64,000 bases of DNA from Bacteroidota bacterium. GTDB lineage: Bacteria; Bacteroidota; Rhodothermia; Rhodothermales; JANQRZ01. Below, piece after piece: positions 27,638-58,641 of the stretch (position 1 is its first letter; the number at the start of each line of letters is the position of its first letter). The stretch spans positions 13,126 through 77,125 of the forward strand of contig JBCDKT010000013.1 in the NCBI GenBank assembly GCA_038746285.1. The letters are read 5' to 3'. The position numbers and the translations under genes were made by a program. The notes beneath the pieces were generated by a model, which saw only the letters and a program-made list of their open reading frames with translations, had not been told where the DNA came from and did no database searches.

Positions 27638-27650
27638 CCTCGCAACACCC

Positions 27651-28370: not shown

Positions 28371-28374
28371 GCCC

Positions 28375-28839
28375 ATGAGCCTCCGCCCGGACCAGATCCC
28401 CTGGCGCTGGCTCCTCGCCGCCGGCGCGGCGCTCGCGCTGCTGACGTGGAGCCCTGTGCGCGAGCACGCGCTGCCGCCGGACACGCCGTGGCACCTGCTG
28501 ATGCAGGCTGAGGGCCTGGACGGCCCGTCGCCGGTACTGCCTGACACGCTGCGCCGGCTCGACGCTCAGCCGATCCGGCTCACGGGATTCATGTACCCGC
28601 TGGAGCAGCGCCGGGACCACCGCCGGTTCCTGCTCTCCCCCCACCCCGCCGGCTGCGCCTTTCACGTCCCGAGCGGCGCGCCGGGCAGCCCGGCCTCGAC
28701 GGTCGAGGTGTTCGCCGATGAGCCCGTCCGGTTCACGTACGACCCCGTCGCCGTCCGGGGCACCTTCGCGCTGGCTGCCGGGGCCTCGGGCGGCGTGCGC
28801 TACCAGCTCCTCGGTGCCCGCCTGGAGGACCCGCCATGA
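28375..28839 (+). CDS. Second DUF3299-like protein
   Basis: LDAQPIRLTGFMYPL, GCAFH, FTYDPVAVRGTF parallel the 16058 protein. Confidence 0.7.
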   Translation: MSLRPDQIPWRWLLAAGAALALLTWSPVREHALPPDTPWHLLMQAEGLDGPSPVLPDTLRRLDAQPIRLTGFMYPLEQRRDHRRFLLSPHPAGCAFHVPSGAPGSPASTVEVFADEPVRFTYDPVAVRGTFALAAGASGGVRYQLLGARLEDPP

Positions 28840-39677: not shown

Positions 39678-39729
39678 GGGTCGGGAGATGGAAAGGCGTG
39701 GAGGGTCGGGAGGGAATGGAGAGATGCGG
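39678..39729 (+). repeat. 9-bp periodic G-rich array (9-mer family, arm N1)
   Basis: gggtcggga gatggaaa ggcgtgga gggtcggga gggaatgga gagatgcgg. Confidence 0.8.
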
Positions 39730-39748
39730 CTGCCCTCTCGCGCGGAAG

Positions 39749-42373
39749 TCAGTTGTCGCCGTCGAGTTGAACGGGCGCGGCGGTGTCGGCATCGAGCGTA
39801 CCGGGTGGAACGACGAACACCGCAGCCTCGTCGGTCGCGGTCCGGCCGTCGGGCCACGCGGCGACGAGGCGGAGGTGCCGCATACCCTCAGCAAGGGGGA
39901 GGTCCCAGCCGACGCGCGTCGAGCGCCCGTCGCGGACGGCCTCACCCTGCGCGACGCCGTCCACGAAGAGCGTCGCCCGCGGCGCGTTCGTGAAGGCCTC
40001 GATGCGCTGCGCTCCGGCCTCGCGGTGGGTGCGGGTGTGGGCGAAGAGCCAGGCCATCGGCGCGTCGGTCCAGCGGCTCTGGTAGAGGTAGTAGGCGGCC
40101 TTCGGCCGGCGGTCGCGCGTCAGCAGGCCCTTCTGGTTGACGTGCGGGAGCGTGCCCGTCTTGACGTGGCTGGCGAAGTCGAACAGGTGCCACACCGCGC
40201 CCCCGGCGACGAACGGGCGCTCGTCGAGCGCGTCGAGGTAGGCCTCGTGGAACCGGAGGGCCCAGGTCTCGGAGAAGTCGAAGGGCTGGGCGGCAGCCTC
40301 GTCCACCCACAGCCCGCGCTGCGCCCCCGCGCCGTACTCAGAGAGGAAGAGCCGGTCCCCTGGGCGCTCGGCGTGGTAGGCATCCAGCCTCGGGCCGATG
40401 TCCTCCGGCATATCCTCGTACCACCCGGCGTACTGGTTCCGGGCCTGGATGTTGGCGGTCGCCATGATCGCGGGATCCACGACGTGGTTCTGCGCCTGCA
40501 CGCTCAGCCGCGACGGGTCGAGCCGAACGGCTTCGTCGCCGAGCCGCTTGGCGAGGGCGAGCGCGGCGGCCTGCACCTCGAGCGTCTGCCACGAGATGAG
40601 CGACTCGTTGCCGGTCCCCCACAGCACGACGCTCGGGTGGTTGTAGTCGCGCTCGACCATCTGCCGGAACATGGCGCTCGCGGCGTCGGCAAAGCCGGGT
40701 GCCGTGGGGTCGGAGGTGATGAACGGGACCTCGGCCCAGACGAGCAGCCCGAGGCTGTCAGCGTGGGCGAGCGTCGCCGGGTGGTGCGGGTAGTGAGCGA
40801 TCCGGACGAAATTGGCTCCCATCGCCTTGGCGAGTTCGAGGTCGCGCCGGGCCTGGTCCGGGCCGGCAGCCCACGCGTCGTCCGGTCCGCCGTCCTGGTG
40901 GGCGTTGACGCCCCGGAGTTGGAGGCGCTGCCCGTTGAGCGCGAACCCGGCCTCCGGTGTCCACTCGAAGAAGCGCACGCCGAGCGGCTCGGTGACGTGG
41001 TCGAGCGCGGCGTAGCCCTCGCCCTCGGCGGGCAGCCGCTCGACAGTCCCGCCGGGCGCGGCGTCGGCCGCGTAGAGTGTGGCGTGGACGGCGTAGAGGT
41101 GCGGGTGCGCCGGTCCCCACAGGAGGGGTAGCCGGAGCGGAAGCGTCTGCTCGACCTCGGTCGCCGCGCCGGGTTCGGGCGCGAGGTCGCGCACGGCGCT
41201 CGCCACGACGCCACCCTCGGGGTGCTCGACGCGGACCACGAGCCGGACTGGCCCGCCCTCACCCCGAACGCGCGTGCGAACCCGAACCACTGCCGCCGAC
41301 GGCGACACCTGAGGTGTATCCACCTGCACGCGCTCGGCGAACGTCGGGCCGGTTGTCACGACCTCGGCCCCGCGGTACAGCCCGCCGAAGAAGGTGTAGT
41401 CCGCCGCGTGCGGGACGACGTCCGCGCGGAACCGGTTGTCGGCGCGTACGGCGACGACGTTGCGGCTCGGCCGGAGCCGACCGGTCAGGTCGAACTCGGT
41501 CCGGGTGTAGGTCCGCGTGGTGGTGCCGAGCGACTCGCCGTTGAGGAATACTTCGCCGCGCAGCCCGATGCCTTCGAGCCGGAGCACGGCCCGCTGCCCA
41601 GCGGGCGGCGCGTCGATCACGGCCCGGTACCACCCGACCCCGCGCCGGTACTGCGGGCCAACATCGAGGCCGTCGGCGAGACCGCGCTGGTCGAGCGCGT
41701 CGGCGGCGTTCCAGGTATGGCGCGGCCCGACAGTCTGCCAGCCGCTGTCGTCGAAGTCGGCGGCTTCGGCACCCGGCGCGTCACCCGCATGGAAGCGCCA
41801 CGCCGGAATGAGCCTGGAGGCCCGGACCGTCTCGGGCAGTGTGAACGGCGCGCGCGTCGTGGGGCCGGTAGCGTTGAGGAGGAGGAAGCGTCCCTCGCGC
41901 GGGGCGAGGTCGAACTCCAGCACCCGGTCGATCCCGAGTACGGACGGCGGGACCTCGATGCGGACCGTGCCGCCCTCCAGGCTCGTCACGAAAAGGGCGA
42001 TCTCGCGCTCGACGTTTTTCTCGCGGGCGAAGGCGAGGTGGTGGGCGTTCGAGCGAACCTCGGCGGTCACGTCGTCCCCGAACCGGCGGCGACGGCGGTC
42101 GGAGTCGGCGCGGGCGGGCGTGTAGAGGTAGCCATCAAAGACGAACCCGCTGACGGTTTCATCGCCGACTGGCACGTCGCGGAACGCGGCCCACCGGTCC
42201 TCGGCCGTCGGGTCGAACGAGACGGCAACGCCGCCGTTTGCCCCGACCGCAACGCCGTCGTCCGAGCCGTCGGCGGTGCGCACCTCGCCGGGTGTGAAGA
42301 GGCCGCCGGGACGGACAGCCTGCGCCTGCGCCGTCGCAGCGGTGAGCACGAGGAGGAAGAGGGCACGGAGCAT
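39749..42373 (-). CDS. Secreted GH2 glycoside hydrolase (beta-glucuronidase/galacturonidase-like) with an extra N-terminal region
   Basis: Start ATG 42373 (MLRALFLLVLTAATAQAQ); GANFVRIAHYPH, WGTGNE, SEYGAG, NQKG. Confidence 0.88.
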   Translation of the reverse strand: MLRALFLLVLTAATAQAQAVRPGGLFTPGEVRTADGSDDGVAVGANGGVAVSFDPTAEDRWAAFRDVPVGDETVSGFVFDGYLYTPARADSDRRRRRFGDDVTAEVRSNAHHLAFAREKNVEREIALFVTSLEGGTVRIEVPPSVLGIDRVLEFDLAPREGRFLLLNATGPTTRAPFTLPETVRASRLIPAWRFHAGDAPGAEAADFDDSGWQTVGPRHTWNAADALDQRGLADGLDVGPQYRRGVGWYRAVIDAPPAGQRAVLRLEGIGLRGEVFLNGESLGTTTRTYTRTEFDLTGRLRPSRNVVAVRADNRFRADVVPHAADYTFFGGLYRGAEVVTTGPTFAERVQVDTPQVSPSAAVVRVRTRVRGEGGPVRLVVRVEHPEGGVVASAVRDLAPEPGAATEVEQTLPLRLPLLWGPAHPHLYAVHATLYAADAAPGGTVERLPAEGEGYAALDHVTEPLGVRFFEWTPEAGFALNGQRLQLRGVNAHQDGGPDDAWAAGPDQARRDLELAKAMGANFVRIAHYPHHPATLAHADSLGLLVWAEVPFITSDPTAPGFADAASAMFRQMVERDYNHPSVVLWGTGNESLISWQTLEVQAAALALAKRLGDEAVRLDPSRLSVQAQNHVVDPAIMATANIQARNQYAGWYEDMPEDIGPRLDAYHAERPGDRLFLSEYGAGAQRGLWVDEAAAQPFDFSETWALRFHEAYLDALDERPFVAGGAVWHLFDFASHVKTGTLPHVNQKGLLTRDRRPKAAYYLYQSRWTDAPMAWLFAHTRTHREAGAQRIEAFTNAPRATLFVDGVAQGEAVRDGRSTRVGWDLPLAEGMRHLRLVAAWPDGRTATDEAAVFVVPPGTLDADTAAPVQLDGDN

Positions 42374-42468
42374 GGGGGTGCGCCTGCGGCGCGGAATGGG
42401 ATGGCACCTTCGGTGCGGAATGAGAAGAACGGGGGGAATGAACATGGGCGCGAAGCGCGACGGCAGGG

Positions 42469-44307
42469 CTAACTTTGATGGTTTTTCTTGACTCCTCCCA
42501 CTCCTCCCACTCCTCCCACTCCTCCCACTCCGCTCATCCCCGGTCCGCGCTGTCCAGTCCACCGGGCGCGGAGGGCGAAGGCGGCGCGCTTCGGGTCGCG
42601 GGTGCGGGTGAAGACGCCCTTGAGGTTGTCGACCACGCGGCGGACGTTCTGCGGCGTGCGGAAATCAGCGAAGTTCCAGACGTGGGCACCGCAGCACGCC
42701 GGGTGGTTCTCGATCACGTCGAGGTACGCCTCGATGAACGCGGCCTGGTACTCCTCGGTAAACTGGCGCGGGACCGTCGCGTGCGCCCCGGCGAGCGTGT
42801 CGGCCCCGAACTCGCTCACTAGGATCGGCTTGCCGTGGGCGTCCGCGATCTCGTCCAGCTCCTCCTTCAGCAGCCGGGCGGCTTCGCCCAGTTGTCCCGG
42901 CTGCGTGTACCAGCCGTAGTAGCGGTTGACCGAGACGATGTCGCAGAGTGGGTAGAGCGGAACGCCGGGGCCGCGTGCGTGCACCGGGACCGTCACAGGC
43001 CGCGACGGGTCGAGGTCGTGCGTGAGGTCGAAGAGCGGACGCCAGTAGTCAGCGGCAACTTCGTTCGTGGCTTCCTCTTCCCCACTCAGCCCCGGCTCGT
43101 TGCCGATCACCCAGCCGACGACCGACGGGTGGTTGCGGTCGCGGCGGACGAGCTGGCGGATGGCCTCGGCGTGGGCCGCTTGCGTGGCGTCCGTCGTCTT
43201 GCTGTGGTTGAGGCTGACGGCGGGGACCTCGGAGAGGACGAGCACGCCGCGGCGGTCGGCCTCGTCGAGCCAGTCCTCGGCGTAGGGGTAGTGGCTCGTG
43301 CGGAACGAGTTGGCCCCGACCCACCGCAGCAGCCCGAAGTCTTTGACGACGAGCGCCGGGTGGTGCGCCTTGCCGAGGACGGGAAAGTCCTCGTGCTTGC
43401 CGAAGCCGCGCAGAAAGACCGGCTCGCCGTTGAGGAGCAGGCTCGTCCCCTCGACCCGCACCTCGCGGATGCCGGCAGGCACCTCGACGCGGTCCACGGT
43501 CTCGTCTCCCGTGCCGAGGTCGAGCCGGAGGGTGTAGAGAAACGGATCGTCCCGCGACCACAGGCGTGGGGCGGGCACCCGGAGCGTGAGCGTGACGCTG
43601 CCGTCGGCCACGTCCTCGACCGCGTCGGCGACTTCTTCTTCGCCATCGTCGAGCCACGCCGCGACGTACTCCCCATCGCCGTCTATGTCCACCTCGACGC
43701 GGACCGTGCCGCCGAGCGAGGTCTTGACGCGCACGTCCTCGATGAAGGTCTTCGGCAAACCGTAGAGCGTGACCGGGCGGTGGACGCCGCCGTAGGGGAA
43801 GAAGTCGTAGCGGGCGGGCGGGAAGTGCTCGGCCCCGGCCCCGCGCTCCTTCGGCTCGGCGAACTCGTGCGAGGCGATGCCCTGCGGGATGGTCTCGGCG
43901 TCGGCGCGGTTGTCCACGCGGAGTGCAACGGGGACGCTTCGCCCCGGCGTCACGCGGCCCGTGATCTCGACGTCGAACGGCAGAAATGCCGCCGTGCTCT
44001 CACCCACGGGTGTGCCATCGACGAACACCTCGCAGTGGTAGTCCGCCGAGCCGACACGGAGGAAGACGCGCTGCCCAGCCATCGCGCTAGGCACGAATAC
44101 GTCGCGCCCAATCCAGCACGCCCCGACGTAGTCCGCCAGCCCCGCCTCGGCGAGCTGCTCGTTCCAGCTTCCCGGCACGGCGAAGGCGAGCGCCCCATCC
44201 CCGAACGGAGCCTCGGCACCGAGCGCGTCGTCGAGGTCAGGCACGAGGTGCCAGAAGCCGCCTAGGTCGAGCGTGAGGCGGTGGGCGTTGGTGGCCGGTC
44301 GGAGCAT
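42469..44307 (-). CDS. uidA: Beta-glucuronidase (GH2)
   Basis: DFFPYGGVHRPV, GFGKHED, GANSFRTSHYPY, WVIGNE, SEFGAD, NLKGVFTR. Confidence 0.92.
   Translation of the reverse strand: MLRPATNAHRLTLDLGGFWHLVPDLDDALGAEAPFGDGALAFAVPGSWNEQLAEAGLADYVGACWIGRDVFVPSAMAGQRVFLRVGSADYHCEVFVDGTPVGESTAAFLPFDVEITGRVTPGRSVPVALRVDNRADAETIPQGIASHEFAEPKERGAGAEHFPPARYDFFPYGGVHRPVTLYGLPKTFIEDVRVKTSLGGTVRVEVDIDGDGEYVAAWLDDGEEEVADAVEDVADGSVTLTLRVPAPRLWSRDDPFLYTLRLDLGTGDETVDRVEVPAGIREVRVEGTSLLLNGEPVFLRGFGKHEDFPVLGKAHHPALVVKDFGLLRWVGANSFRTSHYPYAEDWLDEADRRGVLVLSEVPAVSLNHSKTTDATQAAHAEAIRQLVRRDRNHPSVVGWVIGNEPGLSGEEEATNEVAADYWRPLFDLTHDLDPSRPVTVPVHARGPGVPLYPLCDIVSVNRYYGWYTQPGQLGEAARLLKEELDEIADAHGKPILVSEFGADTLAGAHATVPRQFTEEYQAAFIEAYLDVIENHPACCGAHVWNFADFRTPQNVRRVVDNLKGVFTRTRDPKRAAFALRARWTGQRGPGMSGVGGVGGVGGVGGVKKNHQS
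42491..42531 (+). repeat. 9-bp tandem repeat (actcctccc)x4, 9-mer family arm N2, inside the uidA C-terminus
   Basis: Perfect 9-bp tandem; encodes GVGGVGGVGGV in uidA. Confidence 0.9.
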
Positions 44308-44322
44308 AGGGGTTGATGGAAT

Positions 44323-44415
44323 GGGCGAGTGGGCGGGGTGGAGAGTGGGCGGAGACGAGTGAAGGCGGTCAGGTCGGGTTCTCCCTCGCCCTTTCTCCCA
44401 TTCGCCCTTTCCGCC
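44323..44415. repeat. 8-mer inverted-array element A ('empty', conserved core)
   Basis: gggcgagt gggcgggg tggagagt gggcggag - core gcggtcaggtcgg - tcgccc tttctccc attcgccc tttccgcc. Confidence 0.9.
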
Positions 44416-45468
44416 TCACCGTTCGACGCGGCCGGAGCCGGAGCCGGTGGCCAGCTTATCGACCTCGGCGGCCGAGGTGAGGTTGGCGTCGCCGGGGATG
44501 GTTTGCTTGAGCGCACTCGCGGCGACGGCGAAGTTCAGCGCATCCTCGGCGTCGTCTTTCGTGAGCAGACCATGGATGAGGCCGGCGGCGAAGCTGTCGC
44601 CCCCGCCGACGCGGTCGACGAGGCGTACGTCGTAGCGGCGACTCCGGGTCGGCGCGGCGAGCGGCGCGGCCGTCCCGGCCCCGCCGAGGAGGAGGGCGCT
44701 CCAGCCGTTGTCGCTCGCCGAGTGAGACTCGCGGAGCGTGATCGCGACGGCGTCGAAGCCGTACTCGGCCTTCAGCTTCTCGGCGAGGCGGGCGTACCCG
44801 GCCGCGTCGAGCTCGGCCTCTTCGGCGGCGGCGGCGCCCGAGCCTTCGGTCGTCACGCCGAGCGAGCGGTCGGCGTCCTCCTCGTTGGCGATGCACACGT
44901 CGACGTACGCCATGAGGGATCGCATCGCGGCGCGGGCCTCGTCGACGGTCCACAGCTTCGCCCGGTAGTTGAGGTCGCACGAGACGGTCACGCCCGCCGT
45001 CTTCGCCGCGCGGCACGCCGCCTCCACCGCCCGGTGCGCCGACGGGCCGAGCGCGGGCGTGATGCCCGTCCAGTGGAACCAATCGGCCCCGTCGAAGACT
45101 CGGGCCCAATCGACTTCATCGGGCTGCATCTCGCTCACGGCCGAGTGCGCCCGGTCGTAGATCACCTTCGAGGGCCGCTGGCTCGCGCCGGTTTCGAGGA
45201 AGTAGATCCCGACCCGCTCGCCGCCGCGCACGACGAAGCGGGTGTCGACGCCGTAGCGCCGGAGGTGGCCCACGGCCGCCTGCCCGACCTCGTGCGCGGG
45301 CAGCTTCGAGACGAACCGGGCGTCGTGCCCGAAGTGGGCGAGCGAGATGGCGACGTTGGCCTCGCCGCCCCCGTAGGTCACGTCGAAGCGGTCGGTCTGC
45401 GTGAAGCGGGAGAAGCCCGGCGCCGAGAGCCGGAGCATGATCTCGCCGAAGGTGACGACGGTGGACAT
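44416..45468 (-). CDS. kdgK: 2-keto-3-deoxygluconate kinase
   Basis: TFGEIMLRL, GGGEANVA, DLNYR.KLW, DRVGGGDSF. Confidence 0.95.
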   Translation of the reverse strand: MSTVVTFGEIMLRLSAPGFSRFTQTDRFDVTYGGGEANVAISLAHFGHDARFVSKLPAHEVGQAAVGHLRRYGVDTRFVVRGGERVGIYFLETGASQRPSKVIYDRAHSAVSEMQPDEVDWARVFDGADWFHWTGITPALGPSAHRAVEAACRAAKTAGVTVSCDLNYRAKLWTVDEARAAMRSLMAYVDVCIANEEDADRSLGVTTEGSGAAAAEEAELDAAGYARLAEKLKAEYGFDAVAITLRESHSASDNGWSALLLGGAGTAAPLAAPTRSRRYDVRLVDRVGGGDSFAAGLIHGLLTKDDAEDALNFAVAASALKQTIPGDANLTSAAEVDKLATGSGSGRVER

Positions 45469-45483
45469 GGGTCAGTTGGAATA

Positions 45484-45513
45484 GGGCGTGGAGGGAATGG
45501 AAGGAAAAGAGGG
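45484..45513 (+). repeat. 9-mer family arm N3
   Basis: gggcgtgga gggaatgga aggaaaaga ggg, abutting the GH28 stop. Confidence 0.8.
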
Positions 45514-46845
45514 TTATCCGTCGCTGAGCGTGATGCCTTCGAATCGGACGTTCGTGACGGCTTCGAGGTGGAGCGGGCGGCGACCGGGGCCGGTGATGGT
45601 CACGTCGCGGAGCGTCAACCCGTCAATGTGCCCGAGCGTGAGGTGCGCCTCAACCGGTGCGAGGTCTACCGAGCCGGGCGTCGGGTCGAGGCCTCGCTTG
45701 CCGCCGGGCTTGCGGAGGCCGCCGAGCGGGACCGGATCGGCAATGCGGAGCGTGACGCCGTCGAGCGTGAGGTCCTCAATCGGCGCGTCGGCGCGGCCGG
45801 CGATGAGGACGTTGCCGCGCGTCGCCGCGTCGAGGCCGCGCACGGTGAAACGGCGAACGACCCCGAGTGGGCTGGCCTCGTCGCGCCGGTCGAGGTCGAG
45901 GTAGAGCGGGTACTCGGTGCGGTGGCGCGTCGCCTCGCCGGAGAAGCTGACGTTCTCGACGCGGACATCTTCCACCGTCCCGCCGTCCTTCATGAAGACG
46001 GCCACGCCGTAGCGCGAGTCGCGGATGGCGACGTTCTGGATGAGGACGTGCCGCATCGCCTCCTCGGTCCGCGTCCCGAACTTGATCGCCGCGTCGTCGG
46101 ACGAGAGCACCGAGTTTGTGACGGTGACGTGCTCGACCGGGCGCCCGCTGCCCGCCTTGAAGACGATGGCGTCGTCGCCAGTGTCGATGTGGACGTTTGC
46201 GATGCGGACGTTGCGCGCCCCGCGCAGCCCGATGCCGTCCGTGTTGCGGCTTCGCGGGTCGTTGAGGATGCGGACGCCGTCGATGGTCGCGTCCTCGACG
46301 CGCTGGAGGTTGAGCGTCCAACCCGTGGCGTCGCGGAGGGTCACGTCGCGGACCGTGAGGCGCTCGACATCCTGGAAGAGGGTCCAGAACATCGGCCGGC
46401 CCTCGGTCTCCTCGCCGGTCTCGAGGTCGTAGGCGAAGTCCGGCCCACGCCCGTCGAGCATGCCGGTCCCGATGAGGGCCACGTCCTCGGCGTCGCAGGC
46501 GGCGAGGAGTGCCCGACGGCGTCCGGGGTTGTCGCCCGCGAGTTCGGGCAGGAGCGGATAGTCGGCGAGGTTCGTCGAGCCGCGGAGGACGGCCCCGGCG
46601 TCGAGGTGGAGCCGGACGCGGCTGCGGAGGCGGAGCGTGCCCGTGTCGAAGGTCCCCGCCGGAACCCAGACCGTCCCGCCCCCGCGCCCGGCGCAGGCGT
46701 CGATGGCGGCCTGCACGGCTCCGGTGTCGAGCCGCTCGTCGCCCGCCACCGCGCCGTGGTCGGTCACGAGGCACATCGGCTGGCCCACCGCCGGCACCGC
46801 CCACACCACCAGCATACCGAACAGGCAGAGCAGCACTCTCCCCAT
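45514..46845 (-). CDS. Secreted GH28 (polygalacturonase-family) glycoside hydrolase
   Basis: Likely start ATG 46845 (MGRVLLCLFGMLVVWAVPAVG); AVQAAIDAC..GGGTVWVPAG, NTDGI, TGDDAI; canonical HG and RIK motifs are not evident. Confidence 0.8.
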   Translation of the reverse strand: MGRVLLCLFGMLVVWAVPAVGQPMCLVTDHGAVAGDERLDTGAVQAAIDACAGRGGGTVWVPAGTFDTGTLRLRSRVRLHLDAGAVLRGSTNLADYPLLPELAGDNPGRRRALLAACDAEDVALIGTGMLDGRGPDFAYDLETGEETEGRPMFWTLFQDVERLTVRDVTLRDATGWTLNLQRVEDATIDGVRILNDPRSRNTDGIGLRGARNVRIANVHIDTGDDAIVFKAGSGRPVEHVTVTNSVLSSDDAAIKFGTRTEEAMRHVLIQNVAIRDSRYGVAVFMKDGGTVEDVRVENVSFSGEATRHRTEYPLYLDLDRRDEASPLGVVRRFTVRGLDAATRGNVLIAGRADAPIEDLTLDGVTLRIADPVPLGGLRKPGGKRGLDPTPGSVDLAPVEAHLTLGHIDGLTLRDVTITGPGRRPLHLEAVTNVRFEGITLSDG

Positions 46846-46875
46846 TCCCTCCCCACCCTCCTTTCCCTCCACGCC
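46836..46875 (-). repeat. 9-mer family arm N4 (inverted relative to N3)
   Basis: ctctccccattccctccccaccctcctttccctccacgcc; reverse complement ggcgtgga gggaaagga gggtgggga gggaatggg gagag. Confidence 0.85.
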
Positions 46876-46877
46876 TG

Positions 46878-47564
46878 TCATTGCTCGCCCCCGCGCACGG
46901 CGTCGATGGAGGCGCGGAGCCGGGCGGCGTTGCGCGTCAGCGCGCGCCAGTCCTCGTTGGCCACGGCGTGCGCGTCCACGAGCGCGCTGCCGACCCCGAC
47001 GGCGACGGCCCCGGCGCGGAGCCAGTCGCCCGCATTATCGAGCGAGACGCCGCCGGTGGGCATCAGGCGGAGGTGCGGCATCGGGGCGAGGACGCCCTTG
47101 AAGAACGGGATGCCGAGGACGCCCGCCGGGAAGACCTTCACCACGTCGGCCCCGGCGTCGGTGGCGGCGAGGATCTCGGTCGGGGTGAAGCAGCCGGGCA
47201 TGGCAGCGGCCCCGGCGGCGTGCGCGGCCTCGATGACGGCAGGCCGGAAGACGGGGCTGACGACGTAGCGCGCCCCGGCCTCGACGGCGGCCTCGGCCGT
47301 CGCGGCGTCGAGCACGCTCCCGGCCCCGACGAGGACCGAGCCGCGCATCTCGCGGCACACGGCGCGGATGGCGTCGAGCGCGTTCGGCACGGTCATCGTC
47401 ACCTCGAAGGTGACCACGCCGCCCACCGCGAGGGCCTTCGCGGTCTCGACGAGCCGGTCGGGCCGGTCGGTGCGGACGACGGCCACGGCCCCGTCGCGCG
47501 CGATCCAGTCGACGACGCCCTCGCGGGTGTCGGTGGCGGGTCGGTCGATCAGCAGCGGATTCAT
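46878..47564 (-). CDS. eda: KDPG/KHG aldolase
   Basis: FEVTMTVP, GAGSVLD, VSP, PGCFTPTE, KVFP, PTGGV. Confidence 0.95.
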   Translation of the reverse strand: MNPLLIDRPATDTREGVVDWIARDGAVAVVRTDRPDRLVETAKALAVGGVVTFEVTMTVPNALDAIRAVCREMRGSVLVGAGSVLDAATAEAAVEAGARYVVSPVFRPAVIEAAHAAGAAAMPGCFTPTEILAATDAGADVVKVFPAGVLGIPFFKGVLAPMPHLRLMPTGGVSLDNAGDWLRAGAVAVGVGSALVDAHAVANEDWRALTRNAARLRASIDAVRGGEQ

Positions 47565-48688: not shown

Positions 48689-48694
48689 AGGGTT

Positions 48695-48801
48695 GGGAAT
48701 GGGAGAGCGGGCGAGTGGGAGAATGGGCGGGGTGGCGAATGGGTGATGGGAGAACGGCTACTCCTCTTCGCCCTCTCGCCCTCTCGCCCTCTCGCCCTTC
48801 C
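48695..48801. repeat. 8-mer inverted-array element B (C-rich arm lies in the uxaB 3' end)
   Basis: gggagagc gggcgagt gggagaat gggcgggg tggcgaat ... cta ... ttcgccc (tctcgccc)x3. Confidence 0.9.
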
Positions 48802-50302: not shown

Positions 50303-50315
50303 GGAGTGGTCGGTT

Positions 50316-50425
50316 GGGAATGGGAAAAGTGGGCGGGGTGGCGAGTGGGCGGGGTGGCGAACGAAAGCGGTCAGGTCAAATTCGCCCTTTCGCCCTCTCC
50401 CCCATTCGCCCTTTCTCTCGCCCCC
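50316..50425. repeat. 8-mer inverted-array element C ('empty', conserved core)
   Basis: gggcgggg tggcgagt gggcgggg tggcg - aacgaaagcggtcaggtcaa - attcgccc tttcgccc tctcccc attcgccc. Confidence 0.9.
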
Positions 50426-51952: not shown

Positions 51953-51965
51953 GGCTATGGGGTGA

Positions 51966-52479
51966 GGGCGAGTGGGCGAAAGGGCGAGTGGGCGTTAGAG
52001 GTTGGATTCTCCGTTTGCGTTGTATGGTGTGGGGTCTTCGCGGACGAGAGACGAGGGGCCGCACCACTGTTCCGGGTAGCGCATCATCTTGACGAGACCG
52101 GCGGCGAGGTGGTCGCACAAATCGACGAGCACATCGTGCCTCGCAGCGTTGAGGTAGCCACACTCGAGAGCTACATCGAGCCATACGCTCGTCTCTTCCG
52201 CTTCGCCGAGGGCGTCGGTGAGCTTGCTGACGAAATGTTTGGGGTAGCGACGTTTCGCCCATGCCTCGGCTAGGTTCGCCGAGACGCTGCGTGACGAGCG
52301 CCGCGCTTGATCGGTGAGGGCATATTGCTCCTCCTTCGGCCACGCCTTCGACGCGGCGAAGACCGCCTTCCGAAGCTCAACGGATCGTTCGTAAACGCGC
52401 AGTTCTTTGACTCGCATGGTCTGTCTCATCAGGTTGTCAGGTTCTCTTTCCGCCCCTCCGCCCATTCGCCCTCTCGCCC
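51966..52479 (-). mobile_element. Putative four-helix-bundle cassette bounded by inverted 8-bp arrays (element D, 'filled')
   Basis: Left arm gggcgagt gggcgaaa gggcgagt gggcg (51966-94) abuts the stop; right arm tttccgccc ctccgccc attcgccc tctcgccc (52447-79); enclosed gene is visibly lower in GC. Confidence 0.6.
51995..52429 (-). CDS. Four helix bundle protein (23S rRNA-IVP / Avd-like family)
   Basis: Start ATG 52429 or 52417; L.VY..S...., P.EEQYALTDQ.RRSSRSV.AN.AEAW.KRRY..HFVSKLTDA.GEA.ET.VWL..A.ECGY. Confidence 0.92.
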   Translation of the reverse strand: MRQTMRVKELRVYERSVELRKAVFAASKAWPKEEQYALTDQARRSSRSVSANLAEAWAKRRYPKHFVSKLTDALGEAEETSVWLDVALECGYLNAARHDVLVDLCDHLAAGLVKMMRYPEQWCGPSSLVREDPTPYNANGESNL

Positions 52480-52481
52480 GT

Positions 52482-53987
52482 TCATCCTCCCAGCCTCGGT
52501 AGCGTCGTGCCCGCGAGGAGCGGGACGAACACGACGGCGAGGAGCGTGACGAGAAGCGCGAAGGCGAGGTTCAGCCAGACACCGGCGCGGGCCATCTGCC
52601 CGACGGTCAGGTAGCCGCTCCCGTAGACGATCGCGTTGGGCGGCGTGGCGACGGGGAGCATGAACGCGCAGCTTGCGGCGACGGTCGCCGGGACGAGGAG
52701 GAGGAGCGGCGCGGTGCCGGTCGAGACGGCGAGGGCTGCGAGAACCGGGAGGAAAGCGGCAGCGGTCGCCGTGTTGCTCGTCAGTTCGGTCAGGAAGACG
52801 ATCACCACGACGACGATCCCGACGAGGACAAACGTCGGGAGCGCGCCGAAGGCGGCGAGGGCTTCGCCGATCCACGAGGCGAGGCCGGTACTGGAAATAG
52901 CCGAAGCGAGCGAGAGGCCGCCGCCGAAGAGGAGCAGGATGCCCCACGGGAGCGTCTTCGCCGTCGCCCAGTCGAGCGCCCGCACCGCGTGCCCGCCAGC
53001 GGTCCGCACCGGGAGCGCGAAGAGCGCGAGCGCGCCGAGCATCGCCAGGCCGGGATCGGAGAGGCCAGGCACGACGGCTTCGAGGAGGGGACGCGTGATC
53101 CACAGCAGCGCCACAATCCCGAAGACGGCCCCGACCGTCCACTCGCCCCGGCTGACGGGTCCGAGCGCCGCCAGCCGCTCGCGGATAAACGCCTGCCCGC
53201 CCGGAATCTCCGGCAGCCGCACCGGGAAGACGACACGCACGAGGAGCGTGTACGCGAGCGCGATTCCAATCACCACCAGCGGCAGCCCGACCACGAGCCA
53301 CCCCGCGAACGACACCTCGACGCCGTAGGTCTCCTCGACGAAGCCTGCGAAGAACGCGTTCGTCGGCGTCCCGATGAGCGTCCCGAGGCCGCCGACCGAG
53401 CAGGCGTAGGCGACCCCGAGCATCAGCACGAGCGCGAACCGTCGGTCCTCGGCCTCGGTCCCGACCTCGTCGCGGTGGGCGAGTTCAGCCACCGAGAGCG
53501 CAATCGGGAGCATCATCACAGCCGTCGCGGTGTTCGAGATGCCCATCGAGAGCGCGGCGGCGGCGAGCATCAACCCGAGCACGATCCGCCGCGGCCGCGT
53601 CCCGACGCGCGCCACGACCGAGAGCGCGAGCCGCCGGTGGAGGTCCCACCGCTCCATCCCCTTCGCCAGGAGGAACCCGCCGAGGAAGAGGAAGATGATC
53701 GGGCTCGCGTAGGGGGCCGCCGCGTCCCGGATGCCGGCCACGCCCAGGAGCGGGAACGCCGCGAGCGGGACGAGCGAGGTCGCCGCAATCGGCAGGGCCT
53801 CGGTCATCCACCACACCGCCATCAGCACGGCGACCGCCGCCGCGCCCCATCCGGCCTCGCCCAATCCCTCCGGCGCGGGCAGCGCGAGCAGCACGCCGAA
53901 CGCCGCCAGCCCCGCGACGAGGCCGACGCGCTGCGCCGCCGTCGTCCCGGTCTCGGGCGGAGGGGAAACGGTGGGGGTCGGGGTCAT
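52482..53987 (-). CDS. DASS/SLC13 sodium-coupled di-/tricarboxylate symporter
   Basis: Start ATG 53987; WWMTEALP, SMGISNTAT..MMLP, GTLIGTP, ELTSNTA, AFMLPVATPPNA. Confidence 0.92.
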   Translation of the reverse strand: MTPTPTVSPPPETGTTAAQRVGLVAGLAAFGVLLALPAPEGLGEAGWGAAAVAVLMAVWWMTEALPIAATSLVPLAAFPLLGVAGIRDAAAPYASPIIFLFLGGFLLAKGMERWDLHRRLALSVVARVGTRPRRIVLGLMLAAAALSMGISNTATAVMMLPIALSVAELAHRDEVGTEAEDRRFALVLMLGVAYACSVGGLGTLIGTPTNAFFAGFVEETYGVEVSFAGWLVVGLPLVVIGIALAYTLLVRVVFPVRLPEIPGGQAFIRERLAALGPVSRGEWTVGAVFGIVALLWITRPLLEAVVPGLSDPGLAMLGALALFALPVRTAGGHAVRALDWATAKTLPWGILLLFGGGLSLASAISSTGLASWIGEALAAFGALPTFVLVGIVVVVIVFLTELTSNTATAAAFLPVLAALAVSTGTAPLLLLVPATVAASCAFMLPVATPPNAIVYGSGYLTVGQMARAGVWLNLAFALLVTLLAVVFVPLLAGTTLPRLGG

Positions 53988-54003
53988 GGGTTTGGTTTTG
54001 CGT

Positions 54004-54090
54004 GGGTGAGGGGGCGAGAGGGCGGGGTGGCGAGCGAAAGTGGTCAGGTCAGATTCGCCCTTTCGCCCTTTCTCCCATTCGCCCTCTCTC
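54004..54090. repeat. 8-mer inverted-array element E ('empty', conserved core)
   Basis: gggcgaga gggcgggg tggcg - agcgaaagtggtcaggtcag - attcgccc tttcgccc tttctccc attcgccc tctctc. Confidence 0.9.
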
Positions 54091-54091
54091 A

Positions 54092-55336
54092 TCACTGTCG
54101 GTCGGCGTAGGCTTTGGCGGCGGCTTCGATCGCGCCCTCCTTCGGGACGAGGCCGAGGCCGGGCGCTTCGGGCACGGCGATCATCCCGTTCTCGGGCAGC
54201 ACCTGGGTCTCGAAGAGGTCCCACAGTTCGGGAGCCTTGTCCGGGCCGGGGTGCTCCTGCGGGCGGTCGGCGCGGAGGACCGAGGCGACGTAGTGGAGGT
54301 GCGCCGCCGTGCCGAGCGTCGGGCGCGTCGAGTGGACCGCGATCGGGAGGTCGAAGGCGGAGCAGAGCGCGGCGATGTGGCGGCCCTCGGTCAGCCCGCC
54401 CGCCCGGATCAGGTCGGGGTTGACGACGTCGGGGCGGCCCTGCACGATGAGGTCGCGGAACTGCCAGCGCGTGTACTCGTGCTCGCCGGCGGCGACCTGG
54501 ATGCCGTCGAGCGCGTCCGAGACCTCGGCGTGGTCGGCGTAGTTGGTGTAGCCGACCGGCTCCTCGAAGACCGAGACGTTGTACTCCTCGTAGAGCCGCC
54601 GCCCGACCTCAATCGCGCGCGCGGCCGAGTACCCGTTGTTGGCGTCGACGTAGAGCGGAAACTCGTCGCCGATCTCGGAGCGGATCGCGGCGACGACCTC
54701 GAACGTCGGGTCGTCCACGGGGTCGACGTTGGTCTGCCGGATGTCCATCCGCGCCTTGACAGCCTTGAACCCGATCTCCACGAACCCGGCGGCGATGCGG
54801 GCCATGTCGGCGGGCGTCCGGTCGCCGCCGTCGCGGGAGAACGAGCCGTAGACGGGGATCTCTTTGCGGTACGCCCCGCCGATGAGCTGGTAGCAGGGCC
54901 GCCCGAGCACCTTGCCGCGCGCGTCCCACAGCGCGAGGTCGATGCCGGAGATCGCGCTCGTGATGAGGCCGCCGCGGCCCATGTCGTCCGAGCGGAAGTA
55001 GAGGTCGGTGAAGAGGGGGTCGGCGTCGAAGAGGTCACGGCCCTCGACCTGCCGGTCGATGCGGTCGATGAGGGCGTCGACGATGCCCGGCCCGGCGCCG
55101 GCGCGGTCGGCTTCACCCCAACCTGTGACGCCCGCGCTCGTGCGGACGCGCGTGAAGAGCGCCGCCCCGACGTAGAAGGCGTCCACCTCGGTGACGGTGA
55201 CCGGCGCGACGCCCCGCAGCGGCCCGTCGTAGACCGTCGGGCCCGCCGAAGGCTCGGCGGCGAAGGCGGCACTCGGCGCGGCGGCCGCGAGCGGCAGCGC
55301 GGCGGAGGACCGGAGGAAGTGGCGGCGCGAAGGCAT
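54092..55336 (-). CDS. Mandelate racemase/muconate lactonizing enzyme family dehydratase with Tat signal
   Basis: Start ATG 55336 (MPSRRHFLRSSAALPLAAAA); SGIDLALWD..GK.LG.P.YQL.GG, KARMD, VDAN, FEEP, GEHE, NPD, H. Confidence 0.88.
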   Translation of the reverse strand: MPSRRHFLRSSAALPLAAAAPSAAFAAEPSAGPTVYDGPLRGVAPVTVTEVDAFYVGAALFTRVRTSAGVTGWGEADRAGAGPGIVDALIDRIDRQVEGRDLFDADPLFTDLYFRSDDMGRGGLITSAISGIDLALWDARGKVLGRPCYQLIGGAYRKEIPVYGSFSRDGGDRTPADMARIAAGFVEIGFKAVKARMDIRQTNVDPVDDPTFEVVAAIRSEIGDEFPLYVDANNGYSAARAIEVGRRLYEEYNVSVFEEPVGYTNYADHAEVSDALDGIQVAAGEHEYTRWQFRDLIVQGRPDVVNPDLIRAGGLTEGRHIAALCSAFDLPIAVHSTRPTLGTAAHLHYVASVLRADRPQEHPGPDKAPELWDLFETQVLPENGMIAVPEAPGLGLVPKEGAIEAAAKAYADRQ

Positions 55337-55351
55337 GGCGTCGGGTTTGTC

Positions 55352-55460
55352 GGCGAGTGGGCGGGGTGGCGAAAGGGCGGAGGGGCGAGTGGGCGGGGGG
55401 CAAACGAAAGCGGTCAGGTCGGATTCTCCCATTCGCCCTCTCCCCCATTCGCCCATTCTC
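55352..55460. repeat. 8-mer inverted-array element F ('empty', conserved core)
   Basis: gggcgggg tggcgaaa gggcggag gggcgagt gggcgggg - aacgaaagcggtcaggtcgg - attctccc attcgccc tctccccc attcgccc attctc. Confidence 0.9.
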
Positions 55461-56583
55461 ATCGTCGGCGGGCGCGGTCGGCGGCGTCCTGCTCGGCGCG
55501 GACCGCGCGGTGGCGGCGCTCGTTGAGGCCGGGGTCCTCGCCCATCAGGACGAACAGGCGGATCGCGCCGTCCTGGTTCGCCGTCGCCACAAGCGCCCCG
55601 TTGCGGGAGACGTCCACGTACTCGGCCTGGTCGCCGATGTGGACCTGGAGCGCGGTGTAGACGCGGTCCGGCCCGAGGATGTCGTCGAGCCTGAACATCC
55701 GGAGGTACGGGTCGTTGCCGACGGTCACGAGGTACTGTCCGTCGGGCGTCCACTGGACCGACTCGATCTTGTGCCCGCTCCGGTCGAAGCGTCGGACGAG
55801 CTCGCCGGAGGGAAACGCGTAGAGGTGCAGCAGCCCCTCGGTGTCGCCGGTGGCGAGGTACTGCCCGTCAGGCGAGAACTGGACGGTGATCGAGTGGTGG
55901 TACGGGTTGTCGTCTGAGAGCGAGATGTCCTCGTCGATGTCGAGCACGAGTTGCTCGGTCTCGACCTCCCAGACTTTGAGAAGGCCGTCGTTGCCGGTCG
56001 CGGCGAGGTAGCGGTCGTCCTCCGAGAAGTCCACCTCGTTGGCGGTGTGGCCGAGGTCGAAGAGCTTGACCTGCTCCAGCGCGGGCATGGCGTAGACGCG
56101 GACGAGGCCCTGGCGCTCGCCGTCGGCGGTCCGGCTGTACTCTTCGCCCGCGGCGAGAAAGCGCCCGTCGTGGCTCCACGCGAGGCCGTCGATGCCGGCC
56201 GTCAGCGTCGCCTCCCTCATGGTCTCGCCGGTCTCGGCGTCGAAGACGCGGAGCACGCGGTCCTCGCTCACAGACGCGACGGTGCTCCCGTCGGGGTTCC
56301 ACGCGACCCGCTCGATCTCGGCCGGCAGCGTGCGCCGCCACAGCTCCGCGCCGTCGGAGGTCCGCCACACGATCACGGTGTAGTCGAACTTCGTCCCCGA
56401 GACGAGTCGCGTCCCGTCGTACGAGAACTCGACCGACTCGACCGACCCGGCCTCGCCGTGGACGTCGGCGAGGCGCGTCCAGACGGGGTTGAGCGCGAGC
56501 CGCTTGTCGTCGTACCGAGCGACAGCCTGGGGCTGGGCGAGCACCGGCGCAGCGGTGAGCAAGGCGAGGGCGAGTATGCGCAT
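55459..56583 (-). CDS. Secreted WD40 beta-propeller protein
   Basis: Signal MRILALALLTAAPVLAQ; repeated VxFS.DG..L.SG/T motifs. Confidence 0.85.
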   Translation of the reverse strand: MRILALALLTAAPVLAQPQAVARYDDKRLALNPVWTRLADVHGEAGSVESVEFSYDGTRLVSGTKFDYTVIVWRTSDGAELWRRTLPAEIERVAWNPDGSTVASVSEDRVLRVFDAETGETMREATLTAGIDGLAWSHDGRFLAAGEEYSRTADGERQGLVRVYAMPALEQVKLFDLGHTANEVDFSEDDRYLAATGNDGLLKVWEVETEQLVLDIDEDISLSDDNPYHHSITVQFSPDGQYLATGDTEGLLHLYAFPSGELVRRFDRSGHKIESVQWTPDGQYLVTVGNDPYLRMFRLDDILGPDRVYTALQVHIGDQAEYVDVSRNGALVATANQDGAIRLFVLMGEDPGLNERRHRAVRAEQDAADRARRR

Positions 56584-56586
56584 GGA

Positions 56587-57879
56587 TCAGTACCCGAAGA
56601 GCGACGGGAGCCAGAGCGAGAGCGCCGGCAGGAGCGTCGTGAGGGCGAGGCCGACGAGCATCGCGAGGAAGAGCGGGAGGAGGGGGCGGACCACTTTGGC
56701 GATCGTCGTCTCGGCCACGCCGACGCCGACGAAGAGCACGCTCCCCACCGGCGGCGTGCACAGCCCGATGCAGAGGTTCAGCACCATCACGATCCCGAAG
56801 TGCACCGGGTCCATCCCGAGCTCGACCGCGACGGGCAGGAAGATGGGCGTGAAGATGAGGATCGCCGGCGTCATGTCCATGAACGTCCCGACGGCCAGGA
56901 GCACAAGGTTGATGAGGAGGAACACGACGAGCGGGTTGTCAACCGCCGCGACGGCCGCCGCCACGCTCTGCGGTAGGTTGACGTAGGCCATGATCCAACT
57001 GAGCGCAATCGAGACCGCGATCAGGAGCATCACAATCGCTGTCGTCGCGGCGCTGTCGAGCAGGATCTGCGGGAGGTCGCGCACGCCGATGCCGCGGTAG
57101 ACGAAGGCCAGCACCCCGGCGTAGAGCACGGCGACGGCCGCCGCCTCGGTCGCCGTGAAGAGGCCCGCCACGATCCCGCCAATCACGACGACGAGCAGGA
57201 ACAGGCTCGGGAGCGCTTCCACGAACCGGCGGGCGGCGACGGCGACCGGCAGGCGCTCGTCGGTCGGGTAGCCGCGCCGCCACGCGATCACGCCCGCGAC
57301 CGCCATGAGCAGGAAGCCGACCAAGATGCCCGGCCCGTAGCCCGCGAGGAAGAGGGCCGCAATCGAGACGCCGCCCGAGGCGAGCGAGTAGACGATGAGC
57401 ACGTTCGAGGGCGGGATGACGAGGCCGACCGTCGCGCTCGTGATGTTGACCGCCGCCGCGTAGTCGCGGTCGTAGCCCTCGTCGACCATCCGCGGGCCGA
57501 CCGTACTCCCAATCGCACTCGCGGCGGCGACCGCGCTCCCGGAGATCGCGCCGAAGAGCATCGAGGCGAGGACGTTGACAAACGCGAGGCCGCCGGGGAG
57601 CGTCCCGAGGAGCGCCTTCGCGAAGTCGATCAGGCGCCGGGCGATCCCGCCCCGGTTCATGAGCTGCCCGGCGAGGATGAAGAACGGAATCGCGAGGAGC
57701 GTGAACGAGTCGAGGCCCGTCGCCATGCGCTGCGCGACCGTCGTGAGCGCTGCCACCGGCTCGACCGTCAGCAGGATCGTCGCGACCGTCGAAAGACCGA
57801 TGGCAAACGCGACCGGCACGCCGAGCCCGAGGAGCGCGACGAAGGTGACGACGAGGACGACGACAGCGAGCGCTTCCAC
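56587..57879 (-). CDS. dctM: TRAP transporter large permease
   Basis: GTG start 57879; LLAIPFFILAG.LM, FGAISGS, VIPPS, LCIGLCTPPVG. Confidence 0.93.
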   Translation of the reverse strand: MEALAVVVLVVTFVALLGLGVPVAFAIGLSTVATILLTVEPVAALTTVAQRMATGLDSFTLLAIPFFILAGQLMNRGGIARRLIDFAKALLGTLPGGLAFVNVLASMLFGAISGSAVAAASAIGSTVGPRMVDEGYDRDYAAAVNITSATVGLVIPPSNVLIVYSLASGGVSIAALFLAGYGPGILVGFLLMAVAGVIAWRRGYPTDERLPVAVAARRFVEALPSLFLLVVVIGGIVAGLFTATEAAAVAVLYAGVLAFVYRGIGVRDLPQILLDSAATTAIVMLLIAVSIALSWIMAYVNLPQSVAAAVAAVDNPLVVFLLINLVLLAVGTFMDMTPAILIFTPIFLPVAVELGMDPVHFGIVMVLNLCIGLCTPPVGSVLFVGVGVAETTIAKVVRPLLPLFLAMLVGLALTTLLPALSLWLPSLFGY

Positions 57880-58523
57880 TAGGGCACCTCCGTCTGTCTG
57901 TCGCCGGCCGAGACGCCCGCGCGGGCTACGTCGCGCTCGTGCTCTCCGAACGCCTCGGCCGAGGGCCGGTCGGGGGCGGTCAGGTGGGTGGGCTGCCCGC
58001 GCAGCGTGCGCAGGTGGTCCGCCCATGCGAGGGCGGCGTAGTAGGCGATCAGCAGCCCGCTCAGCGGGAGCACGCTGTAGACGACTCCGAGCGGCAGCCC
58101 GAGCGCCGCCGAGGTCTGCTCTAGGACGAACGTCAGCCACACGAGGTAGCCCCCGCCGAACGCCATCGCCCCAAGCGCGAACGCCACGACCGCCCCCTGG
58201 ATCACGAGGCCGAGTGCCGCGCGCGCCTTGCCGCTGAGCGCCCGCGGCAGCAGGTCGATGGCGAGGTGCAGCCCCTGCCCGCTCGCGTACGCCGCGCCGA
58301 GGAGGCCGACCCAGATCAGCAGGAAGCGCGCGAGCTCGTCGGTGAACCCGCTCGGCTGCGGGAGCGCGAACCGGGTGAAGACCTGCCAGAGGACGTTGAG
58401 CACGCTCAGCCCCATCAGCACCGCTACCGCCCACCCGAGTGCCGTGTCGACGCGCCCCTTCGTCCCCCCGTCGCGCGTGGCGACGAGCAGCGGGCGGGAC
58501 GGGGTAGGATCGGAAGGGGTCAT
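57879..58523 (-). CDS. dctQ: TRAP transporter small permease
   Basis: Start ATG 58523; QVFTRF, DELARFLLIW..LLGAAY, HLAID. Confidence 0.9.
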   Translation of the reverse strand: MTPSDPTPSRPLLVATRDGGTKGRVDTALGWAVAVLMGLSVLNVLWQVFTRFALPQPSGFTDELARFLLIWVGLLGAAYASGQGLHLAIDLLPRALSGKARAALGLVIQGAVVAFALGAMAFGGGYLVWLTFVLEQTSAALGLPLGVVYSVLPLSGLLIAYYAALAWADHLRTLRGQPTHLTAPDRPSAEAFGEHERDVARAGVSAGDRQTEVP

Positions 58524-58527
58524 GTTT

Positions 58528-58641
58528 GGCGTGGAGGGAGTGGAGGGTCGGGAGGGAGTGGGCGAGTGGGCGGAGGGGCGAGTGGGCGGAGGGGCGCTGT
58601 GCTCATCTCCCACTCGCCCTCTCTCCCATTCGCCCATTCTC
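58528..58641. repeat. Hybrid element G: 9-mer array joined to an 8-mer inverted-array element
   Basis: ggcgtgga gggagtgga gggtcggga gggagt | gggcgagt gggcggag gggcgagt gggcggag ggg ... ctccc actcgccc tctctccc attcgccc attctc. Confidence 0.88.

Follow-up and report, generated by a model that had tools for sequence, protein, structure and literature searches.

The window analysed here is a 64,000-nt stretch of contig JBCDKT010000013.1 from a Bacteroidota bacterium of the order Rhodothermales (GenBank assembly GCA_038746285.1, positions 13,126 to 77,125). Its minus strand carries a hexuronate (sugar-acid) operon whose gene junctions hold short-period arrays of G-rich and C-rich repeat units. The genes follow one another in the order dctP, dctQ, dctM, a WD40-like gene, an enolase-superfamily dehydratase gene, a DASS symporter gene, a PF05635 four-helix-bundle (4HB) gene, uxaA, uxaB, uxuA, eda, GH28, kdgK, two GH2 genes and uxaC. 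The 4HB gene and the arms on its two sides form a cassette, and the junctions are designated J15 (dctP to dctQ) to J1 (GH2 to uxaC).

Junction elements of the hexuronate operon

Tandem Repeats Finder (TRF) reports arrays of period 8, 9, 16 or 24 at 10 of the 15 junctions (Table 1). Degenerate 9-nt G/C-skewed arms that it misses lie at two more, J1 and J4, and show 76-79% identity to the 3' arm of a 4HB cassette elsewhere in the genome. The initial annotation had counted arrays at 12 of the 15 junctions by eye, and this count is confirmed; gene coordinates likewise agree with its statement that the three array-free junctions overlap or lie 3 nt apart.

Read in the sense of the mRNA, a full element opens with a periodic arm rich in G, continues through a short core or loop and closes with a complementary periodic arm rich in C, the whole measuring ~70-170 nt. 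In the operon the G-arm starts at the upstream stop codon or a few nucleotides past it, and 13-32 nt separate the end of the C-arm from the following start codon. Folding predicts one long imperfect stem per element, with free energies of -38 to -75 kcal/mol, and in seven of the eight self-contained junction elements the z-scores against shuffled sequences are -2.6 to -4.9, J12 being the exception. These stems are followed by C/A-rich leaders instead of T-runs, no T-tract terminators or promoter-like sites are found at the operon junctions, and none of four terminator-like sites falls at a junction, which speaks against intrinsic terminators. A known RNA family was also dismissed, as Rfam 15 gives no match at the gathering score and its sub-threshold hits, generic microRNA-precursor hairpins on both strands, are spurious.

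At least three element families are present in the operon. The W family occupies J3, J8, J11 and J12 and is defined by GGGCGARW arms and the core CTGACCTGACCGCTTTCG. Its members are 71-79% identical over ~100 nt and share the order of variant units along with an 18-nt non-repetitive core, which identifies them as copies of one another and not as products of independent slippage. With up to three mismatches allowed and array flanks required, the W core occurs four times in the genome, each time in this operon. The 5' arm and leader of the 4HB cassette align with this family, and J7 and J15 have W-type arms from which the core is absent. A cassette that promotes copying, itself or through its product, would be expected to leave just such a family, confined to the neighbourhood of its gene-bearing copy.

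The second family is recognized by its terminal inverted motif, GGCGTGGAGGG / CCCTCCACGCC, which is common to ~60 dispersed elements. In the operon it is represented by J5, whose arm shares 87% identity with the 5' arm of the 4HB cassette carried by contig C55. J4 and J1 resemble the 3' arm of that cassette, as does the outer arm of J15, which matches the terminal motif. J5 and J4 are partners: their arms pair almost perfectly (-50.3 kcal/mol) across the ancestral GH28 gene, over 1.3 kb.

The third family, core2, has 61 copies on 38 contigs (for example C2:119054, C11:7573 and C39:5849), of which J2 is one. Its core of ~35-55 nt (…GGCGCGGAGCGCGAGGGTCTCGTTAACTTTCTCGGCTTTTCTT) carries on both sides tandem arrays whose unit changes between copies, and the arrays of the two sides often lack mutual complementarity. 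Copies lie in the same orientation in 25 cases and in the opposite one in 18. Core2 seems to be an element type in its own right, one that bears arrays or gives rise to them.

Table 1. Positions of the operon, its arrays and its junction elements in the window, with predicted folds and the corresponding gaps in the related genome G009
Feature	Position	Strand	Description	Fold, kcal/mol (z)	Gap in G009
Hexuronate operon	38211-59590	-	16 genes, 15 junctions		
TRF junction arrays	42372-42531, 44322-44411, 46834-46870, 48697-48798, 50328-50415, 51966-51994, 52449-52490, 54054-54090, 55352-55458, 58531-58641				
J15, dctP to dctQ	58524-58641	-	Composite hairpin: inner GGGCGAGT-type arms and outer C-rich arm ending in CCCTCCACGCC, 4 nt ahead of the dctQ start codon	-52.3 (-4.9)	
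J12, WD40 to dehydratase	55337-55458	-	W family: G-arm, core CCGACCTGACCGCTTTCG, C-arm	-43.6 (only -0.9)	48 nt, C-rich, no G-arm
J11, dehydratase to DASS transporter	54012-54091	-	W family, core CTGACCTGACCACTTTCG	-37.8 (-3.1)	~17 nt
4HB cassette, 5' G-rich arm	52448-52481	-	Begins right after the DASS stop codon	-52.3 (5' and 3' arms joined)	
4HB cassette, leader	52418-52447	-	AGAGAACCTGACAACCTGATGAGACAGACC; follows the 5' G-rich arm		
4HB gene	51995-52417	-	PF05635 / TIGR02436 by profile matches, 140 aa		
4HB cassette, 3' C-rich arm	51953-51994	-	CGCCCACTCGCCCTTTCGCCCACTCGCCCTCACCCCATAGCC		
J8, uxaA to uxaB	50303-50425	-	W family, core TTGACCTGACCGCTTTCG	-49.4 (-2.6)	29 nt, sequence unrelated
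J7, uxaB to uxuA	48689-48800	-	Hairpin with GGGCGAGA-type arms, W core absent	-50.8 (-4.1)	12 nt
J5, eda to GH28	46837-46880	-	Lone G-rich 9-mer arm (CAGGCGTGGAGGGAAAGGAGGGTGGGGAGGGAATGGGGAGA)		eda and GH28 overlap (ATGATG)
J4, GH28 to kdgK	45469-45513	-	Lone C-rich 9-mer arm ending in CCCTCCACGCC		
J3, kdgK to GH2	44308-44415	-	W family, core CCGACCTGACCGCCTTCA	-41.2 (-3.0)	14 nt
J2, GH2 to GH2	42374-42540	-	Dispersed core2 family: (GGGAGGAGT)4, ~55-nt conserved core, degenerate C-rich arm	-75.2 (-2.9)	
J1, GH2 to uxaC	39678-39748	-	Degenerate C-rich 9-mer arm with CCCTCCACGCC; no clear partner	(-0.9)	17 nt

Distribution and polarity across the genome

Genes were called and TRF was run over the whole assembly, which is 96.6% complete. 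The junction statistics use the TRF rows, our own periodicity detector being too strict for alternating units: its strict form (mismatch -3) missed nearly all arrays of the window on account of such units, and a looser version missed several. The same detector finds 292 arrays in intergenic DNA and 2 in shuffled intergenic DNA, so that arrays stand far above chance. The density of those with period 7, 8, 14 or 16 is 7-15 times as high in intergenic DNA as in coding DNA (462 versus 52 per Mb at period 7, 388 versus 56 at period 8). The TRF consensus sequences comprise ~80-100 distinct units, here called flavours, at each of periods 7, 8 and 9, and perfect tandem runs elsewhere in the genome reach 13 units. 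Many contigs stop within long perfect arrays (C9:6-103, C19:23-120, C37:4-116, C20:1-100, C25:4-110, C58:8-105 and C64:3-120), for which reason the copy counts given here are lower bounds. The properties by which short tandemly repeated repetitive (STRR) sequences are recognized, namely head-to-tail units of ~7 nt, several families per genome and a preference for non-coding DNA, are all found here, with units of 7-9 nt.

Arrays occur at 629 of the 3107 junctions of the genome (20%). Among co-directional gaps 60-250 nt long, ~26-32% hold one, and the fractions for convergent and divergent gaps are similar. With its 10 TRF arrays, the hexuronate operon is the densest 15-junction stretch of the genome. 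Junctions less than 2 kb apart share a flavour in 9% of pairs against a background of 2%, and in 7% of pairs when this operon is left out; flavour sharing between neighbouring junctions is thus a general but weaker trend.

The arm order of the elements is strict. Among two-arm elements genome-wide, the G-arm comes first in 105 and the reverse order in 0 (P ~5e-32). Eight of the 105 lie in convergent gaps, where a start codon plays no part. The layout of G-arm then C-arm is identical on both strands; it therefore belongs to the element itself and does not depend on how the element is oriented. Where a co-directional gap holds a single array, that array is more often C-rich in the mRNA sense (162 versus 70, P 1e-9). 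Across 76 two-arm elements of co-directional gaps, the median spacing between the upstream stop codon and the beginning of the G-arm is 2 nt, and 83% have a spacing within 10 nt; the spacing between C-arm and next start codon varies far more. G-arm-first polarity and stop-codon anchoring are two rules for which any mechanism must account.

The initial annotation had suggested mapping arrays of two motifs against the distance to 4HB genes. Those of the GGGCGA[AG][AT] type are enriched in the operon, which contains 8 of the 29 loci (59-fold, P ~1e-12), but of the 21 loci outside it none has another 4HB gene closer than 10 kb. The other motif, GG[AC]GTGG.., is that of the dispersed family of ~60 copies and shows no such link: GG[AC]GTGGAGGG is found at 64 loci bearing no relation to 4HB proximity. 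As a general rule, proximity to 4HB genes was therefore rejected, the window alone displaying it.

Comparison with relatives, other cassettes and known repeats

The history of the junctions is visible in G009, a genome from another genus of the same family. It has the whole operon in the same gene order, the compared proteins are 69-91% identical, and flank matches span the WD40-like gene to uxaC. Its junctions measure 2-54 nt, with the DASS gene and uxaA 2 nt apart; the operon has no 4HB gene, and TRF finds no junction array of period 7 or 8 in 36 kb. GH28 lies in the same position there without the J5 and J4 arms. Two further relatives, G010 and G015, have no arrays at their uxaA loci and a third, G021, has a few. 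Samples of 120-176 kb from each of three relatives suggest that G009 is array-poor overall. On this sequence comparison the arrays are lineage-specific insertions that postdate the split from G009, not conserved signals, because the orthologous operon there is tight, array-free and devoid of the 4HB gene. The invaded junctions were formerly overlapping or only a few nucleotides long and probably translationally coupled. The two operons form a before/after pair, one invaded at 12 junctions and its orthologue at none, which shows the elements as insertions into such coupled junctions and indicates that operons tolerate them.

Several elements also involve gene ends. The C-termini of three upstream proteins, the DASS symporter (52482), the WD40-like protein (55459) and the dehydratase (54092), are altered relative to G009 exactly at the element boundary. 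In UxaB and one GH2 protein the arrays supply both coding sequence and stop codon: the last ~13 residues of UxaB (…KGERARGREGEEE*) are encoded by the J7 G-arm (array 48758-48800), and the tail of the upstream GH2 protein (…GVGGVGGVGGVGGVKKNHQS*) by the J2 9-mer array (42469-42531). The ancestral 3' end of the DASS gene (CTCCGCCCTCAC…TAA) persists at the outer edge of the cassette C-arm, whose last ~20 nt correspond to this end as retained in G009. G009 itself has native arm-like sequence at the end of eda and ahead of the dehydratase gene. Together, the surviving DASS end and the native arm-like sequence hint at insertion seeded by homology. As for the operon itself, uxaA is absent from the four same-genus genomes searched, and absence of the hexuronate operon there and its presence in another genus point to gene transfer or differential loss.

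The leaders of G009 (L013:15257-15304 and other junctions) are C-rich just before the start codons and have no Shine-Dalgarno-like purine runs. Many elements of the window genome end in CCCTCCACGCC(G/A)AA a few nucleotides before the ATG. C-rich leaders may be a native translation-start context that the C-arms mimic or arise from.

The window 4HB protein matches Pfam PF05635 (E 7e-28) and TIGR02436 (E 2e-26), and its closest solved structures are 2GSC (XCC0516) and 2RLD. Its gene differs in composition from the adjacent uxaA (GC 0.61 versus 0.73; third-position GC, GC3, 0.72 versus 0.93). The genome contains 11 PF05635 genes with a GC of 0.54-0.67 against 0.69 for the genome, most of which are skipped by a gene caller trained on the host. 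Inverted periodic arms bracket 10 of the 11, each pair of a different flavour. Arms also bracket 8 of the 10 PF05635 genes examined in other genera of the order, and in one relative the cassette arms are (GGGGACT)n, the cyanobacterial STRR1 unit. Across phyla, where loci were sought with a six-member subset since the alignment of all 11 proteins is too diverse, arms bracket 48 of 80 PF05635 loci; the 5' arm is G-skewed in nearly all armed loci and neutral in one. The period of 7-9 nt is retained across flavours and phyla. Gene-bearing cassettes encode just a PF05635 protein of ~120-140 aa, and the nearest named relatives of the genome's 4HB gene are in Rhodothermales and Rubricoccaceae genomes. 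No publication was found that ties PF05635 to heptamer or octamer arrays or to arms of this kind. Array-armed hairpin elements linked to PF05635 cassettes constitute a widespread class that is, as far as we found, undescribed, and the hexuronate operon is one more, unusually informative, instance of it.

The PF05635 family was first known from intervening sequences (IVS) of 23S rRNA, which are cut out of the rRNA by RNase III. Ralph and McClelland are said to have described in 1993 IVS of Leptospira, Coxiella and others that bear an open reading frame (ORF). The window cassette resembles them in that a PF05635 gene lies in the loop of a long stem of inverted termini (51953-52481), in the existence of ORF-less versions, and, presumably, in a host RNA that tolerates the insert by folding it out. 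Unlike the IVS, all elements of the window lie between protein-coding genes, so that the host RNA is a polycistronic mRNA; their stems are built from tandem units of 7-9 nt, and gene-less intergenic copies number dozens to hundreds.

Heptamer repeats of the STRR type are reported to have been described in Nostoc/Anabaena by Mazel and colleagues in 1990. The GGGAATC heptamers of Xanthomonas and the GGGGA(C/T)T heptamers of Nostoc/Anabaena are transcribed, lie mainly between genes and number hundreds of copies, and 70-75 pairs of the Xanthomonas repeats are in convergent orientation (Rehm et al. 2015, PMC4692102). Both are short-period G-rich arrays like those described here, and the convergent Xanthomonas pairs reproduce the layout of G-arm then C-arm. 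These heptamers were published as quadruplex-forming simple repeats, with neither a cassette gene linked to them nor non-repetitive cores or local family bursts reported; the arrays of this genome have all three, and periods of 8 and 9 nt dominate. The TAACTGA heptamers of marine Beggiatoaceae are abundant intergenic direct repeats, found mostly just upstream of start codons, strongly oriented to the downstream gene and with one inverted pair only (MacGregor 2015, PMC4679880). They share with our arrays a short unit and abundance in intergenic DNA, and differ from them in that the latter form inverted arm pairs anchored at the upstream stop codon.

Small, non-coding, palindromic, multi-copy intergenic elements are familiar as MITEs (miniature inverted-repeat transposable elements) and as repetitive extragenic palindromes and bacterial interspersed mosaic elements (REP/BIME), among them Correia/NEMIS, ERIC, RUP and REP; they are co-transcribed, and some are cut by RNase III or stabilise mRNA. 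The junction elements are MITE-like in being below 300 bp (70-170 nt), non-coding and multi-copy with inverted termini, the W family having just four copies. They are unlike MITEs in that their gene-bearing relatives encode a 4HB protein with no transposase-encoding parent known. Comparison with the empty junctions of G009 gave no clear target-site duplication. They differ from both MITEs and REP in having tandem arrays as arms in place of unique inverted repeats. A REPtron was rejected, since the REP-associated tyrosine transposase (RAYT/Y1, PF01797) that accompanies REP/BIME has no match in the 96.6%-complete assembly. A link to a diversity-generating retroelement is unlikely, the single reverse-transcriptase gene lying on another contig without a PF05635 gene.

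Origin of the junction elements

We consider it probable, at about 0.65, that the junction arrays are the arms of palindromic elements which are gene-less relatives of the 4HB cassettes and were inserted into once-tight junctions. The W family would have spread by copying over short distances, in which template switching or gene conversion, and no transposase, was seeded on native C-rich leaders. The elements may be essentially selfish or neutral passengers, tolerated at junctions because fold-back in the polycistronic mRNA would keep stop and start codons close. By analogy with the rRNA IVS, RNase III probably cleaves their long, imperfectly paired stems, and any effects on the stability or expression of operon segments would be a by-product of this cutting.

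Several results weigh against this reading. Permutation of the array labels gives stretches of at least 10 arrays in 54 of 500 trials (P ~0.11), and the fold z-scores of J12 and J1 are not significant. The free energy per nucleotide is the same at junctions with arrays as at array-free junctions of equal length (-0.364 versus -0.365 kcal/mol/nt), and unusually stable structure was accordingly dropped as a defining property of the elements. Against the empty junctions of G009 the spacers are replaced or diverged, with no clear target-site duplication or clean insertion boundary, and no mobilising enzyme was identified. A single insertion cannot explain how J5 and J4 bracket the ancestral GH28 gene. 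Lastly, around the other ten 4HB genes the elements of matching flavour form no local clusters and are dispersed instead, so short-range copying is not a general rule. The proposal of the initial annotation that arrays spread locally from the resident 4HB cassette thus survives for the W family, whose four copies all lie in the operon and align with the cassette. It does not survive as a general account, given arrays at a fifth of all junctions and the outcome of the permutation.

Its alternative proposal, selection for mRNA-processing signals, is unsupported. In its fuller form this explanation takes the arrays as selected cis-regulatory RNA, that is, as RNase III or RNase E sites, 3'-end stabilisers or translational insulators that tune the genes of a ~21-kb transcript. 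Stable stems are predicted at nearly every non-overlapping junction, each begins where the upstream gene stops, with 13-32 unpaired nt ahead of the following start codon, and the operon contains no terminators; moreover, REP/BIME and Correia elements are RNase III targets that influence mRNA stability. A regulatory role of this kind is nevertheless improbable, for the orthologous operon of G009 is tight without any such elements and G010 and G015 also lack them, co-directional, convergent and divergent gaps contain arrays at about the same rate, core2 has no orientation preference, copies have diverged by 21-29% with no conserved pairing beyond the repeat's own, and stability per nucleotide is that of array-free junctions. 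Expansion in place is less probable still. According to this model, slippage enlarged native C-rich leaders and G-rich gene ends, and shared flavours reflect composition only. Suitable seeds exist in G009, where the ends of eda and of the DASS gene contain GCGTGGAGGGGAGGGA and CTCCGCCCTCAC, respectively, and a C-rich leader of 8-nt periodicity precedes the dehydratase gene; the perfect runs seen elsewhere in the genome arise through slippage and no other process. Against this model stand an 18-nt non-repetitive core with the same succession of variant units at four junctions, a terminal motif GGCGTGGAGGG common to ~60 elements and a 35-nt core common to 61, and the 105:0 polarity of inverted arm pairs is not expected from independent slippage.

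We regard as equally doubtful a role at the level of DNA, in which the arrays would act as G-quadruplexes or i-motifs, as cruciforms, or as arrays of binding sites for the 4HB protein that affect replication, transcription or the nucleoid. Arrays of at least four GGGCGAGT units contain four GGG runs with 5-nt loops, the arrangement for which quadruplex formation has been demonstrated in the heptamers of Xanthomonas and Nostoc (PMC4692102), and the constancy of the 7-9-nt period across flavours and phyla hints at a protein or structural ruler. The quadruplex sequence criterion of at least four runs of three or more G fits these GGGCGAGT-type arms and not many other flavours, such as AAACCAG, GGCTGTT and GGAAGAGC, which have no G-runs. 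Arms are, in addition, always paired with their complement, which favours a hairpin over a quadruplex.

Insertion of cassette-related hairpins bears on two puzzles: the short-period intergenic repeats of several phyla (STRR, GGGAATC, TAACTGA) have been unexplained for decades, and PF05635 is a large orphan family. A speculative extension, to which we give only a small chance, is that PF05635 4HB proteins are the trans-acting partners of bacterial hairpin elements made of 7-9-nt tandem repeats, including the cyanobacterial STRR and the Xanthomonas GGGAATC repeats. Such proteins would recognise or propagate arms of their own flavour; the W burst, restricted to 14 kb surrounding the resident cassette, would then be a cis-preferential footprint, and the window operon and that of G009 would represent the states after and before invasion. 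In practice, arrays of this type fragment assemblies, extend or replace protein C-termini and can mimic regulatory RNA structures.

Some observations concern other features of the locus and genome. The metal operon of the window (13892-31067, plus strand, gaps of -4 to 56 nt) lacks junction arrays, as had been noted at the outset; this is unremarkable, since 7% of all 15-junction stretches genome-wide contain no array. Within one of its genes, at 15223-15391, lie repeats of period 12, 18 and 36 with units such as CACGACGAGGAGCACGCC, which are coding, rich in His, Asp and Glu, and bear no relation to the junction arrays. A separate dispersed repeat, GGGTCCCCGCCGGAGCCTGTCCTGAGCGCAGTCGAACGGGCGGGGATGACG, which surfaced as near-matches in the search for the W core (C4:50589, C11:54428, C24:50763, C60:14716 and C15:57117), is likewise unrelated to the arrays. 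In the hexuronate operon, at 54092-56583, the N-terminus of the acid-sugar dehydratase is a twin-arginine-type signal (MPSRRHFLRSSAALPLAAAAPSAAFA) and the adjacent WD40-like protein has a hydrophobic N-terminal leader, both of which are kept in G009; a hexuronate operon with a periplasmic dehydratase would be unusual.

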